Assembly: GCA_963783655.1 (NCBI GenBank)
Contig: CAWAOA010000010.1
Coordinates: forward strand, 71,054-135,053
DNA: 64,000 bases
Source: an uncultured Chloroflexia bacterium
GTDB lineage: Bacteria; Chloroflexota; Anaerolineae; CG2-30-64-16
Direction: 5' to 3'
Of this stretch, positions 35,643 to 43,012 are shown piece after piece (position 1 is the first letter of the stretch; every line of letters starts with the position of its first letter). The position numbers and the translations under genes were made by a program. A model generated the notes under the pieces. The model was not told the origin of the DNA and made no database searches. It was given only the letters and a program-made list of their open reading frames with translations.

Positions 35643-37073
35643 CTACTGGCTGCGGATCCGCATGTACTGCCAGGCGTTTCGCACAAGCTGGCTGCCGTTC
35701 ATGCGCACGGGGAAGAGGCGGCGGCTGAGGGCATAGCCCTTCCACAGCTTGTACACCAGCCAGAAGAGCTGGTTGGACGGAAGCTTGATCAGGCGGCGGA
35801 CCATACCGCGCAGGCGCGGGAACTCGACGGTCAGCGCGAACAGCTTCTGCAGATTCTCGATCTGCCGCTTCTCCGCCTGCGAGCCGAAGCGGATGAGGGT
35901 GTCATCGCTCACCGAGCCGGACAGGTCGTCAAACGAGCCGTCCATCCATCCCTCGCGCTGCGCCATTTCTCCCAGCTGGGTTTGCGGATACGGCTGGTAG
36001 AGGAAGACGTTGGCATAAGCGGGCCGGCACTGGATGTTCAGATCCAGCGTCTCGAAATCGGTCTCGAGGTCGCCGGTGGGCAATCCGAGCATGTTGTTGG
36101 TGGAGAATGCAATCTGATTCTCGCGCAGCAGGCGCGAGGCGCGCAAGATTTGCTCACGCGACATGTGGCGGTTGAGGATCTCGTTGCGCAGCCGGTCGTT
36201 GCCGGCCTCCAACCCATAGCTGACGCTGACGCAGCCCCCCTCCTTCAGGAGGCCCACTGACTGCTCGTTGACCAGGTTGGCGCGCACCTGGCACCACCAG
36301 GGAATGCCGATCTCTTCGGCGTAACTGGGACAGAAGGAGCGCAGCCAACGCGGGTTGACGATGAAAGTGTCGTCCATAAAGATGACGAAGTCCAGGCCCC
36401 ACGTGTCACGCAGATCGCGGATCTCGTCCAGCACACGCCGGACGCTGCGCTGGCGCAGCCGCTTGCTGCCGGGATACAGCTGCGAATACGCCTTGTTGAA
36501 GCAGAAGGAGCAGTCGTAGGGGCAGCCGCGCCCGATGATGATGGGGCGGATGCGGCCGCGCCGGCTGGCGGGGTGCGCGTCGTACAGCAGCTTGCGGTCG
36601 GGAAAGGGGAGCGCATCCAACTCGGCGCTGGACAAGAGCGGGCGCGGACCGTTGCTCGATGACTGCCCGTCCACCTTGACATGCCAGTTGGCGATCCCGG
36701 TCACCGGCTGCCCGGCCGCGAGCGCATTCATCAGGTCGAGAGTTGCGTACTCCCCTTCGCCGATGCAGACGGCGTCTACCCCATCCTCTTCGATGAGATT
36801 GGGGAAGAAGGTGGGGTGAGGTCCGCCGAAGATCGAGAAGACGGGCAGGACGTCCCGGATGCGCCGGTTCAGCTCCAGGTAGTAGTTCTGCATGCCGGTG
36901 TAGACGGTGTAGCCGACCACGTCTGGCCGCAACCGGGCGGCAGCAGCCACCGGATCCTCTTCCGTGGCCACCACCAGGCTCACCTGATGGCCCGCGTGCT
37001 TCAGGACGCTCGAGATCAGCAGGATGCCCTGCGGCTCGTTATCGATCTGCTTTACGACGAAGAGCAGGTGCAC
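35643..37073 (-). CDS. B12-binding radical SAM protein (copy A')
   Basis: GTG start after [45 protein letters not shown]. Confidence 0.9.
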   Translation of the reverse strand: MHLLFVVKQIDNEPQGILLISSVLKHAGHQVSLVVATEEDPVAAAARLRPDVVGYTVYTGMQNYYLELNRRIRDVLPVFSIFGGPHPTFFPNLIEEDGVDAVCIGEGEYATLDLMNALAAGQPVTGIANWHVKVDGQSSSNGPRPLLSSAELDALPFPDRKLLYDAHPASRRGRIRPIIIGRGCPYDCSFCFNKAYSQLYPGSKRLRQRSVRRVLDEIRDLRDTWGLDFVIFMDDTFIVNPRWLRSFCPSYAEEIGIPWWCQVRANLVNEQSVGLLKEGGCVSVSYGLEAGNDRLRNEILNRHMSREQILRASRLLRENQIAFSTNNMLGLPTGDLETDFETLDLNIQCRPAYANVFLYQPYPQTQLGEMAQREGWMDGSFDDLSGSVSDDTLIRFGSQAEKRQIENLQKLFALTVEFPRLRGMVRRLIKLPSNQLFWLVYKLWKGYALSRRLFPVRMNGSQLVRNAWQYMRIRSQ

Positions 37074-37129
37074 AATCACCTCACAACGCCTTGACGGGGC
37101 GCGATCCCCCTCAGTCAAGGAAGGCCGAG

Positions 37130-38530
37130 CTATTTGGGCAGGAAGAACCGCCGCGGCATTCGCCAGCGTGGCCGGCAACTCGGTCCAGAATGCCGGTTGC
37201 GATACCTTTTCCCATACCCGAACGGGGCGATACAGGTAGAAGCGCCGGTACGCCTCTTTCCACTTGCGAACGACCAGTGTCGGAATCGTATCCGGGCATG
37301 GTGAAACGCGGCTTCTCCGATTGGATGGCAAAGTCTTCCCAGCTATCGGCGAAGACGTTGCCGTACTTCGTGATCAGGTCGTACATTTCGGTGCCCGGGT
37401 AGGGCGTAGCGAGCATGAAGTTGGCGAGGTCCGGATCGAGCTCGAGCGCCAACTGCGTGGTCTTCTCCATCGTTTCTTCGGTCTCTTGCGGCATCCCGTA
37501 GATGAAGAAACCCATCGTCTCCAACCCGGCCTCCCGCGCCCAGCGGAACGCATTGCGCACCATCTCGACCGTCTGCCCCTTTTTGATCACGTCGCGCAGG
37601 ATCCGCTCGTCCCCGCTTTCCACGCCGAAGCCCACACGCTTGCAGCCTGCGGCCTTCATCAGTTGGAACAGCTCCTCGTCCGCGTGGTTGACCTTCATGC
37701 CGTGCACGGTAACCCAGGGGACGGTGTTGAGCCCTTCGGCGATCAGGGCCCGGCATAATTCCTTGGCACGAGTAACCTTCAGGTTCCAGATGTCATCGGT
37801 CATGCCGATTTCGGTGGCGCGCAGGTCGCGCACGAGCCAGCGCCATTCGCCGATGACGTTCTCGACCGAGCGAGGGCGCCAGGTATGGCCGGTGATCGGC
37901 TTGGAGCAGTAGGTACACTTGTACGGGCAGCCGCGACTGGTCATGAGCGTGTACGAGCGGGCGTGCTTATCCAATCCGTCGGTCAGCGGCTGCAAGTTGG
38001 TGTAGCGCGCGATCTTGTAGAGATCGTGCGCCGGATAGGGCAGCGAATCGAGATCGGCGATCAGGCGGGCGGGCGCGTTGAGCGCACATCGCTGCCAACA
38101 CGATGCCGAAGAGACCGGGCACCTTCTCGAGGGCGCCGTGCCCTTCCAGGGCCTCCACCAACTGCGGCAGCTCTCCTCTGCCTCGCCCTGGATCACGTAA
38201 TCCACCTCGGGGTGTTCGGGCGCCAGGGATTCCTCGGGCATCAGCGTCAGGTGCGGACCGCCGAGAACGGTGGTCAACCCCAGGCGCTTGCCCTCGGCTG
38301 CCGTGCGCCAGGCTTCGTAGATCAGTGGGGTGACGGCGCTGATGCCGAGCATCTCGTAGCCGTGCCGCCGCACGACGTCGGCCAGCGGCTGGTCCTCGAC
38401 GGCGCCGTCGAAGATACCCACGTAGTGCCCCTGCGCACGCAATGCGGACGCGAGGTACCCCAGCCCCAGCGGGATGTGCTTACGCGGAGTTCCAGACCCG
38501 AGTTTCGGGACTGGCAAGGAGAATGCGCAT
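37130..38530 (-). CDS. B12-binding radical SAM protein (copy B'; frameshifted)
   Basis: [53 protein letters not shown]; ends approximate. Confidence 0.88.
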
Positions 38531-41540: not shown

Positions 41541-41554
41541 GATCCCTCCGGTCC

Positions 41555-43012
41555 TTAACCCTTCAATCGCATGAAGTGTATCGCGGCCTGCCACAGGCGG
41601 GCGGGGCCGAGCGTCACCGGGTGTACCCGGTGGTAAATGGCAAATCCCTTGTGCAGCTTGTGGATCCACCAGAAGAGGGTGTCCCACAGACGATTGTGCG
41701 GCAGGCGGATCAGCCGGCGGATCAGCGGCTCCAGCCAGGGCCATTCTACGCCAAGTGCAAAGAGACGCTGCAGGTGCTCCACCTGCGACTTGTGTTCCTC
41801 GCTGTCGAAGCGCAAGATCGAGCGATCCCAGGCAATCTCGCCGATGTCGTCAAAAGTGCCGCCCATCAGCCCCTGCTGGCGCGTGAACTGCCCCAACTCG
41901 GTTCCGGGATAGGGCTGGAACAGGAAGGCGTAGGCGTAACTGACGTTTGCTTCTGCGTTCAGCCGCATCGTCGCCAGGTCGTCTTCTAGCGTGCTGGTCG
42001 GGAGCGCCAGGATATTTGTGGCGGTCAGGTGCATTCCGGCTTCGCGGACGAGCCGCCCGGCGCCCACGATTTCCTCGCGGCTCATGCGCCGGTTCAGCAA
42101 CTGCTCGCGGATGCGATCGTCGGCCGCTTCGATCCCCATGCTGACCGTGTGGCAGCCCGCCGTCTTCAACAGGGCTACCTTGCGCGGATCCTTCACGAGC
42201 ATGTTGGCGCGCACGTTGCAGAAGAAGGGCAGCCCCACCTGGCGCGGCCACTTTTCGGCCAGTTCTTCCAGCCAGTCATTTCGCAGGATGAAGAGGTCGT
42301 CCACGAACACAACCTGCTCCAGCGGCCAGCGCGCCCGCACGAAATTCACCTCGGCGATGAGATCGTCCACCGGCCGCTGGTAGCCGCGCCTCTCCTTCGG
42401 GTAGAGCTGGTAATAGGCATGGTTGAAGCAGTAGCTGCAGTTGTACGGGCAGCCGCGCGATGTCATGAAGTGCTTGATCGGGCTGGCGGCCAGATCGGGA
42501 TGCTTATCATAGATCAGCATCCGGTCGGCGCGCGGCAGACTGGAGAGGTCTGAGATCAGCGGGCGCACGGGATTGCGCGTGATTTCGCCCTCGACCTTGA
42601 ACCACCAGTTAGGGATGCCGGTCTGGAGTGCGCCGTTCCCGAGCGCGGCCGCAAGGTCCAGGATCGCGCCTTCGCCTTCGCCGAGGCAGACGCCGTCCAC
42701 TCCCTCTTCCTGGATGAAGTCAGGGAAGAAGGTGGGGTGCGGACCGCCAAAAGCGGAGAAGATGGGCCGGGAGCGCAGCGGGTTCAGGCGGGCGCGGATA
42801 CGATGGTTCAGCTCCAGATTGGCGCGCTGGGAGCCGGTCATCACGCTGAAACCCAGGATATCAGGCTCGAACCGCTCGGCAAACGCCACCGGGTCTTCCA
42901 GGTCGGCTACCGCCAGTGCCACCTCATGCCCCGCCTGCTTGAGCACGGCGGACATGGACATGATGCCATGCGGCTCGTAGCTGATCTCTTGCTCTACGAA
43001 CAGAACACGCAA
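41555..43012 (-). CDS. B12-binding radical SAM protein (copy A)
   Basis: Intact 485 aa; [41 protein letters not shown]. Confidence 0.92.

Follow-up and report, generated by a model that had tools for sequence, protein, structure and literature searches.

Three-component extracytoplasmic glycosylation, whose parts are a polyprenyl-phosphate sugar synthase of glycosyltransferase family 2, a flippase and a glycosyltransferase of the C type, is exemplified by the systems CsbB/GtcA/YfhO, ArnC/ArnEF/ArnT and GtrB/GtrA/GtrC. Radical S-adenosylmethionine (rSAM) enzymes of the B12-binding type are among the largest enzyme groups with mostly unassigned functions. The Anaerolineae are abundant and poorly cultured bacteria of sediments, sludge and sponges. 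In the hopanoid side-chain module the B12-type rSAM enzyme HpnJ is proposed, in passages of one report (PMC13459092), to ring-contract the glucosamine of the glycolipid made by the family 2 glycosyltransferase (GT2) HpnI. Passages of a 2026 review describe the largest B12 rSAM sequence groups as unexplored (PMC12931638). Here a tandem block of five such genes is described from a window of 64,000 nucleotides, the whole stretch of DNA that was analysed, belonging to an uncultured member of the Anaerolineae. The window is G000:C10:71054-135053, where G000 is the source genome, an assembly of 4.59 Mb in 20 contigs with an estimated completeness of 66%. The block is a real, conserved and uncharacterised system built on known kinds, namely class-B rSAM tailoring and glycolipid or envelope glycosylation. 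It has, in our estimate, about an even chance of being a battery of rSAM enzymes that remodels sugars bound for the cell envelope. A search of the full-text literature found no paper on the block or on B12 rSAM enzymes in glycan or lipid synthesis of Anaerolineae.

The block occupies the minus strand at 35643-43012 and consists of five co-oriented class-B-type rSAM genes with intergenic gaps of about 2-45 bp. The genes are numbered R1 to R5 in transcription order; G, L and f numbers denote genomes, fetched loci and families, and C numbers the contigs of G000. Gene bounds were set from the open reading frame (ORF) listing and from frameshift-aware alignment with the intact orthologues of genome G005. 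R1 (41555-43012) is intact, encodes 485 amino acids (aa), and carries the motifs GGPH, GEGE and CPYNCSYC; its orthologues in 12 listed genomes are 72-76% identical. R2 (about 40044-41552) is frame-broken by single-base indels, appears in tblastn as three pieces in three frames, and shows no in-frame stop after frameshift-aware alignment, its motifs being CPYRCSFC, GGPH and GEGE. R3 (38540-40035) is also broken, and after correction shows [12 protein letters not shown] and HEGE. R4 (about 37111-38530), in which CPYKCTYC is seen, has its true C-terminus in the frame used by the upstream portion of ORF 35643-37331. R5 (35643-37073), a paralogue of R1, is intact, with a GTG start at 37073, a length of 476 aa and the motif CPYDCSFC.

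The Radical_SAM domain (PF04055) exceeded its cut-off in R1 (78.8 bits), R2, R4 (82.2 bits) and R5 of the window and was weak in the R3 fragment. The B12-binding domain (PF02310) exceeded its cut-off in R1 (57.8 bits), R4 (66.2 bits) and R5, and the R2 fragment scored 31.3 against a cut-off of 32.1. All five intact orthologues in G005 have both domains over cut-off, with PF02310 at 55-72 bits against 32.1. After read-through, all five window genes show GGPH, GEGE/GEAE/HEGE and CxxxCxxC (CxxxCxx[33 protein letters not shown] and CPYDCSFC). By these domain and motif tests R1-R5 are class B rSAM enzymes, the class defined by a B12-binding domain, and domain homology predicts that they bind cobalamin. 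Thus the ORFs, the Pfam domains and the motifs together bear out what the earlier note on this DNA had read from the letters, five co-oriented and tightly spaced genes of the B12-type rSAM class, and the frameshift-aware alignment bears out the indels it had noticed in the block.

The five proteins form a mosaic of three families, R1/R5, R2/R4 and R3. In G005 the paralogues R1 and R5 are 43% identical and R2 and R4 39%; R3 stands apart. No NCBIfam model reached its curated cut-off for any of R1-R5, either with the window proteins or with the G005 orthologues. The top matches, HpnJ and BchE, scored no more than about 195 bits, about one third of the cut-off. HpnJ (TIGR03471, cut-off 577.6) is the closest curated family of R2/R4, with an alignment near full length, and gave 181.7 for G005 R2, 194.8 for G005 R4 and 156.4 for the window R4. 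The best score for BchE (TIGR02026) was 166.6, for G005 R4, against 481.35; bacteriochlorophyll genes were not searched for. The AprD4 family diol dehydratase (NF033070) reached at best 117.4 against 500, the ladderane-type lipid B12 rSAM (TIGR04072) 128.5 against 360, and the models of ribosomally synthesised and post-translationally modified peptide (RiPP) type at most 131.5 against 750 (ApyD, NF050148) and 102.4 against 281.85 (TIGR03975). PhpK, HpnR and others scored lower than HpnJ and BchE.

Among solved structures the matches were AprD4 (6fd2, rSAM core only), the methyl-coenzyme M reductase glutamine methyltransferase 9ccb, CysS, TokK and OxsB. AprD4 was the best match of R1, R2 and R3, with E values from 1.9e-16 to 3.8e-20. 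In the R1/R5 profile the N-terminal domain aligns with TokK, OxsB and 4q37, which are true cobalamin domains. A stored homologue in the ESM Atlas (P0014) fell in generic "B12 binding/Radical SAM" clusters only. None of R1-R5 therefore appears, from these comparisons, to fall in a characterised family, and the clustering with known enzymes that the earlier note had held out as fatal to its claim of an undescribed system was not found, no NCBIfam cut-off having been reached.

By the names in public records the R1 family belongs to Chloroflexota, chiefly Anaerolineae and Caldilineae. The exact order R1-R2-R3-R4-R5 also occurs in G005 and G019, both of one genus. Four-gene versions were found in three genomes: R2-R5 in G004, R1-R4 in G030, and R2-GNAT-R3-R4 in G052, which is labelled as a different class. 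The arrangement is thus conserved in other genomes, and the doubt raised on this point by the earlier note falls away. Versions of the block that hold rSAM genes only are widespread in Anaerolineae. In the majority of same-family genera the set is R1, R2, a third R2-like gene, an rSAM gene of the SPASM type and R4, often with a 453-aa B12 rSAM. Within the family, 23 of 24 genomes have an R4 orthologue, as do 6 of the 16 other families of the class; R3 occurs in G000 and 3 of the 24 same-family genomes, yet in 11 of the 16 other families; R1/R5-type genes occur in 16 of the 24. These distributions make the block a mosaic, with modules that are found apart in other lineages, and not one indivisible five-step pathway. 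The earlier suggestion of a dedicated multi-step pathway is not borne out in the form in which it was made.

Several genomes have additional genes in or near the block. In some, R1 and R2 are separated by inserted genes, which are toxin-antitoxin-like pairs or DUF5661 and are not shared. Putative toxin-antitoxin-like pairs were also seen, in single genomes, inserted in the rSAM block or beside R3 (L066:11613-12226; L135:9518-10215), and GNAT acetyltransferase genes lie within the blocks of L117 and L136. In G000 two more SPASM-type rSAM genes are present, one about 1.6 kb past the window end (G000:C10:136678-137496) and one on another contig (G000:C8:32518-33558). The latter shares 73% identity with the 360-aa rSAM found as the last gene of some variant blocks (L065).

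Frame breaks are confined to three genes of the block: R2 has 5 (near 41297, 41155, 40895, 40411 and 40092), R3 has 8 and one in-frame stop, R4 has 5-7, and R1 and R5 have none. The breaks show no tie to homopolymers. After correction, the identity to G005 is 79.2% for R2, 78.7% for R3 and 75.6% for R4, and that of the intact R1 and R5 is 74.6% and 77.1%. Outside the block, G000 rpoC (G000:C12:159908-164247) is split between two frames, and 6 of 22 other conserved genes show 1-3 frame changes relative to relatives, one of these genes being 88% identical. Because rpoC and other conserved genes are split and the completeness is low for an assembly of 20 contigs, the breaks in R2-R4 are very probably assembly errors, and the block is therefore treated as functional. 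Frame breaks are common across the genome, being found also in the membrane gene at 33781-35526, in ORF pieces at 62003-63979 and in rmlA/rmlB (G000:C3:190895-192995). With its frame breaks, 66% completeness and 20 contigs, G000 resembles an unpolished long-read assembly with an uneven error density.

The relatives of the block genes lie in informative neighbourhoods. Locally, the earlier remark that no recognisable pathway genes accompany the block still stands. It fails for the relatives, which lie in sugar and glycan loci: rmlA/rmlB with Wzz and a BY-kinase, a GT2 gene with an LPG_synthase_TM gene, glycosyltransferase C (GT-C) genes, and DegT; a weak GT-C candidate also follows R5.

The first of these associations links the R1/R5 and R2/R4 types with a glycosyltransferase pair. 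The GT2 (PF00535) has about 305 aa and one C-terminal hydrophobic helix, and its NCBIfam matches are generic. Its partner is a flippase-like protein of the LPG_synthase_TM/UPF0104 type (PF03706, 151 bits), and the two genes are adjacent in every genome examined; the G000 copy of the pair lies on contig C3. The distribution was determined in a sample of 301 genomes of the phylum, with orthologues defined at E<=1e-90 for R4 and E<=1e-80 for the GT2. R4 and GT2 orthologues were found in the identical 8 genomes and in none of the other 293. R1 orthologues occurred in 7 of these 8 and in one other genome. In a set of relatives from 17 families, the R1-type, R4-type and GT2 genes are all present in f1, f6, f7, f8, f11, f12 and f17. 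In addition, six families (G029, G034, G040, G012, G042, G065, G077, G089) have the GT2 or the flippase-like gene no more than 3 kb from a gene of the R2/R4 or R1/R5 type.

The second association is with GT-C enzymes and other glycan genes. At 13 of 85 loci an R1/R5-type gene has a gene for a GT-C enzyme (TMEM260-like, PMT_2, PTPS_related) no more than 4 called genes away, and at 9 of the 85 a sugar-nucleotide or glycosyltransferase gene. In L023, L077 and L084 the R1/R5 type is followed by genes of the PTPS_related and PMT_2 kinds. In the window itself a gene for a polytopic membrane protein (33781-35526, minus strand, with at least 2 frame breaks) starts 117 bp past R5. A 700-aa homologue with 41% identity (L149) gave sub-threshold matches to YfhO (26.0 against 28.5) and PTPS_related (19.4 against 26.4). 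From these scores, which are weak evidence, the window protein is probably a YfhO/PTPS-related-like GT-C glycosyltransferase, and it possibly forms part of the block's system. BLAST did not match the gene to the GT-C families found at other loci, and this downstream neighbour is not conserved in G005. Distant homologues of the R1/R5 type in DPANN archaea and two other phyla (including a metagenome-assembled genome (MAG) of Coatesbacteria) lie in glycan clusters with DegT, GT2 and GT4 genes, and the same clusters hold short-chain dehydrogenase/reductase (SDR) epimerases, GalU and AsnB. The adjoining SPASM rSAM in these clusters is 33-35% identical to the block-type SPASM rSAM. A different setting was seen at Caldilineales-type loci (L040, L042, L052, L056 and 6 more), where the neighbours are putative ribokinase-, pseudouridine-glycosidase- and nucleoside-hydrolase-like genes.

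The third association is that of R3 with genes for sugars activated by deoxythymidine diphosphate (dTDP). R3 was followed outside the rSAM block in 9 fetched loci, L127-L135; the greedy ORF caller mis-strands some genes, among them R3 in L127 and L131, and coordinates from the genome search were used where relevant. In 7 of the 9 loci rmlA-long and/or rmlB lies within 2 genes of R3, which stands beside or between them. These clusters, of the exopolysaccharide type, usually add a Wzz-like protein, a BY-kinase (tyrosine autokinase) and CpsB, and also GT4. The neighbours exceed their NCBIfam cut-offs: rmlA_long scored 468.5 against 320.25, dTDP-glucose 4,6-dehydratase 463 against 365.1 and the tyrosine autokinase 195.4 against 108. 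Among 41 relatives, rmlA-long is present in 14 of the 14 genomes that bear R3 versus 10 of the 27 that do not; in G000 it was detected as fragments only. At G000:C3:190220-192995 the genes for the tyrosine autokinase, rmlA-long and rmlB form an uninterrupted run that lacks R3, although R3 stands at this place in six other families. This suggests that R3 has relocated between the rSAM block and the polysaccharide locus.

Since three rSAM families point independently to sugar contexts, the envelope-sugar reading is the preferred one. It starts from what was observed directly, namely gene content, motifs, conservation, neighbourhoods and co-distribution, and from these we infer which class of substrate is used, of what type each reaction is, that cobalamin takes part and in which order the steps run. 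Two modules, each found without the other elsewhere in the Anaerolineae, would make up the block. Module A would consist of the R1/R5-type and R2/R4-type enzymes, to which many relatives add a SPASM rSAM and further B12-type rSAMs, with the membrane-anchored GT2 and the flippase-like LPG_synthase_TM (UPF0104) protein as partners. In a first step the GT2 would load a hexose or amino sugar onto a membrane carrier, polyprenyl phosphate or another lipid. The soluble rSAM enzymes would then alter the carried sugar through hydrogen-atom abstraction, with C-methylation, deoxygenation, epimerisation or a ring contraction like that of HpnJ/Cds as the options. The flippase-like protein would export the product, and GT-C enzymes (TMEM260-like, PMT_2, YfhO/PTPS-related) would pass the sugar to an acceptor in the envelope. 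Module B would be R3, working on or after the dTDP-activated hexose that comes from RmlA (long) and RmlB. A bolder form of this scheme, possible though on the whole doubtful, is a route common to whole families of Anaerolineae, in which up to six rSAM enzymes rebuild a lipid-carried sugar before export and R3 performs a parallel step on a dTDP-hexose, giving a heavily C-methylated, deoxygenated or carbocyclic (cyclitol-like) sugar.

A number of points weigh against the envelope-sugar reading. The sugar role would rest on gene context, which is indirect evidence. In G000, G005 and G017 the GT2/flippase pair is remote from the block, either on a separate contig or at a distance of 34-130 kb, and 8 of the 24 same-family genomes have no R1/R5-type gene and still hold R4 and the GT2. 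The co-distribution may come in part from shared ancestry, kin being non-independent, and the sole control gene, an M1 peptidase found in 40 of the 301 genomes, is broader and not matched in conservation. Of the 85 R1/R5 loci, 63 lack a GT-C or sugar gene in the span of 4 called genes, and 10 show nucleoside-catabolism genes instead. The GT-C identity of the gene at 33781-35526 comes from sub-threshold matches only. The use of cobalamin, for which no motif is diagnostic, is also in question: CobS exceeded its cut-off in 2 of 5 block-bearing genomes and was not found in G016 and G017, which are 98-99% complete, and the best structure match, AprD4, reportedly binds no cobalamin, AprD4 and ArsL being described in passages of the 2026 review as having the fold without it (PMC12931638). 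Finally, about 18-20 indels fall in the 4.5 kb of R2-R4 versus none in R1, R5, RtcB and MoaA, and because this density is far above that of the flanks, a local decay of R2-R4 in G000 is possible.

The mosaic make-up of the block also agrees with independent enzymes that have separate substrates and were gathered by chance or by common regulation, such as a shared need for Fe-S clusters, SAM or B12. Co-located independent enzymes are plausible because the modules occur apart: R3 is present without R4 in five families (f2, f3, f5, f9, f16), 63 of the 85 R1/R5-type loci have no R2/R4-type gene within 4 called genes, and the contents of the block vary by genus, with R3 in some and R2' with a SPASM rSAM and the 453-aa B12 rSAM in others. 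Genes for an Fe-S carrier and a Cys-rich regulator lie upstream, as common regulation would have it. However, the genes are spaced by 2-76 bp with an orientation that is kept over several families and a second class, the R1-type, R4-type and GT2 genes have one distribution, and the sugar contexts were found for all three families independently. Independence of the five enzymes is thus judged unlikely.

The membrane location of the GT2 and its flippase-like partner would also suit an action on lipids, in which the enzymes methylate, cyclise or cross-link the hydrocarbon of alkyl, isoprenoid, hopanoid or tetraether chains after the models of HpnP/HpnR, GrsA/B, Gmm and the ladderane-type B12 rSAMs. 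The weak NCBIfam likeness to HpnJ, HpnR and the "lipid biosynthesis B12-binding/radical SAM protein" TIGR04072 points the same way, and in passages of one study Chloroflexota are proposed as producers of branched tetraethers (PMC11868695). Yet all lipid-family scores are far under their cut-offs, that of TIGR04072 being 128.5 against 360, and passages of the same study report GrsA matches as missing from Chloroflexota MAGs (PMC11868695). Squalene-hopene cyclase (TIGR01507) exceeded its cut-off in one of five genomes (G005); it was not found in G000 or in G016, which is 99% complete, and G017 gave only a 23-bit match. Tes (NF045702) exceeded its cut-off in none of the five, and the GrsA/B sequences were not compared. 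In the fetched loci no fatty-acid, isoprenoid or ether-lipid gene recurs beside the three families. Tailoring of membrane hydrocarbons is accordingly rather improbable. Two specific candidates were rejected, the hopanoid pathway (HpnJ/HpnP/HpnR), with its sub-cut-off scores and a squalene-hopene cyclase missing from most block-bearing genomes tested, and tetraether tailoring, with Tes over cut-off in 0 of 5 genomes. Of the substrates that the earlier note had left open, a lipid, a glycan or a small molecule, a glycan or glycoconjugate is now favoured, and hopanoid and tetraether lipids are disfavoured by the results for squalene-hopene cyclase and Tes.

Several B12 rSAM C-methyltransferases together with a SPASM maturase, as in the variant blocks, could also serve to mature a RiPP, and the low-score likeness to ApyD and to the RiPP C-methyltransferases of TIGR03975 fits this as do the SPASM rSAM genes themselves. 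The gaps of 2-76 bp, however, leave no space for a precursor gene in the block, and no conserved short ORF was found in or beside it, although the search did not extend to precursors under 70 aa in the rest of the genome. The insertions between R1 and R2 are not shared, the fetched loci show no recurrent gene for a protease, a transporter or RiPP recognition, and the genes are inherited with whole families and not in a patchy way. RiPP maturation is very unlikely.

Least probable of all is that the enzymes act on RNA alongside RNA-repair enzymes: in the window and many relatives RtcB immediately precedes the block in the same orientation, with no terminator-like site found in between, and a Clp1-type P-loop kinase (PF16575, 88.9 bits) lies 3' of an R2/R4-type gene at L101:13164-14015 and L097:13966-14808, but we know of no class-B rSAM enzyme that acts on RNA, the RtcB link is limited to lineages with the SufR-like/MoaA/IscA/RtcB synteny (at most 15 of the 85 loci) and absent from the R-gene loci of G029, G034, G035 and G040, and the association with the GT2 pair is far broader.

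The upstream surroundings of the block in the window are as follows, all on the minus strand. The RtcB RNA ligase gene (43459-44934; Pfam RtcB, 580.6 bits) is the nearest; no terminator-like site was found between it and R1, and it may be co-transcribed with the block. A functional link is doubtful. An intrinsic-terminator-like hairpin (45015-45046), with a 14-bp stem followed by a T run, lies after the gene for an IscA/HesB-like Fe-S carrier (45056-45505; Pfam Fe-S_biosyn). Beyond are MoaA (45556-46569; Pfam Radical_SAM and Mob_synth_C) and an ArsR-family regulator (46588-47223) with an HTH_5 domain and a Cys-rich C-terminal half, which we take to resemble the Fe-S regulator SufR. The hairpin parts these SufR-like, MoaA and IscA-like genes from RtcB and the rSAM block. 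The synteny of RtcB, the IscA-like gene, MoaA and the regulator is found in the same family and a few others and not in G029, G034, G035 and G040; 15 of the 85 loci, all in one lineage set, have RtcB, MoaA or the Fe-S genes at most 4 called genes from the R1/R5 type. Two RNA-repair-type genes are thus found by these rSAM genes in two lineages, the Clp1-type kinase 3' of the R2/R4 type and RtcB 5' of R1. Over-long RtcB genes occur at L065:6752-9733 and L028:2928-5951 (993 and 1007 aa), and at L129:9994-12546 an 850-aa dTDP-glucose 4,6-dehydratase has its match split in two with weak archaeal polymerase matches between; all three look like intein insertions.

In 7 genomes the gap between RtcB and R1, 32-446 bp long, encodes no peptide that is conserved from genus to genus, and a 95-aa ORF at 43043-43330 was rejected as low-complexity and not conserved. 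A riboswitch or other RNA element before the block was likewise rejected: Rfam gave nothing at gathering score in the whole window, and at 42900-43600 only a chance-level match (E 0.74). A co-oriented gene downstream of the block (29362-31563) encodes a 733-aa protein in which a spermine/spermidine synthase domain was recognised (PF01564, 49.8 bits). Between this gene and the block lie genes for membrane or secreted proteins that match no family.

If the bolder form of the envelope-sugar reading is true, the block would be the first case of rSAM tailoring within a GT2/flippase/GT-C pathway, and some members of the large, unexplored B12-type rSAM group would gain a function. The envelope-sugar reading itself, if true, would mean a new sugar chemistry in the envelope of Anaerolineae, the products of which might serve as new biomarker sugars or cyclitols. 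The partners, GT2 with the flippase-like protein, rmlA/rmlB and the GT-C enzymes, would point to defined substrates, namely dTDP-hexoses and lipid-linked sugars.

Several described systems share features with the block. The loci of TokK/ThnK for carbapenems, of the ladderane-type TIGR04072 and of PoyB/C for proteusins also have several class-B rSAM paralogues each; unlike them, the block has no nonribosomal peptide synthetase, polyketide synthase, beta-lactam, fatty-acid or precursor-peptide genes near it. Three-component glycosylation systems resemble it in the membrane-anchored GT2 that stands beside a polytopic flippase-like protein and in the GT-C enzymes near the R1/R5 type, although the flippase-like protein here is of the LPG_synthase_TM type and not GtrA. 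To our knowledge, none of the known three-component systems has rSAM tailoring of the carried sugar. The rSAM enzymes of antibiotic pathways, the diol dehydratase AprD4 and the C-methyltransferases GenK, GenD1, Fom3 and MoeK5, have sugars or sugar-like carbons as substrates, as R1-R5 would; GenK, GenD1 and MoeK5 are B12 rSAM methylases according to passages of the 2026 review (PMC12931638). Unlike these, the block and its relatives have a context of primary envelope glycan genes inherited by whole families and not of secondary-metabolite clusters.

The nearest precedent would, by analogy, be the HpnI/HpnK/HpnJ (HpnL) hopanoid side-chain module. The differences are that several paralogous rSAM enzymes stand here in place of one, that GNATs and no HpnK-like deacetylase were seen, that most of the block-bearing genomes tested lack squalene-hopene cyclase, and that the scores reach about one third of the HpnJ cut-off. 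The two systems share the combination of a GT2, a B12-type rSAM enzyme and an LPG_synthase_TM/HpnL-like membrane protein, and the flippase-like partners of the block match HpnL itself weakly, with E values of 1e-8 to 1e-12.

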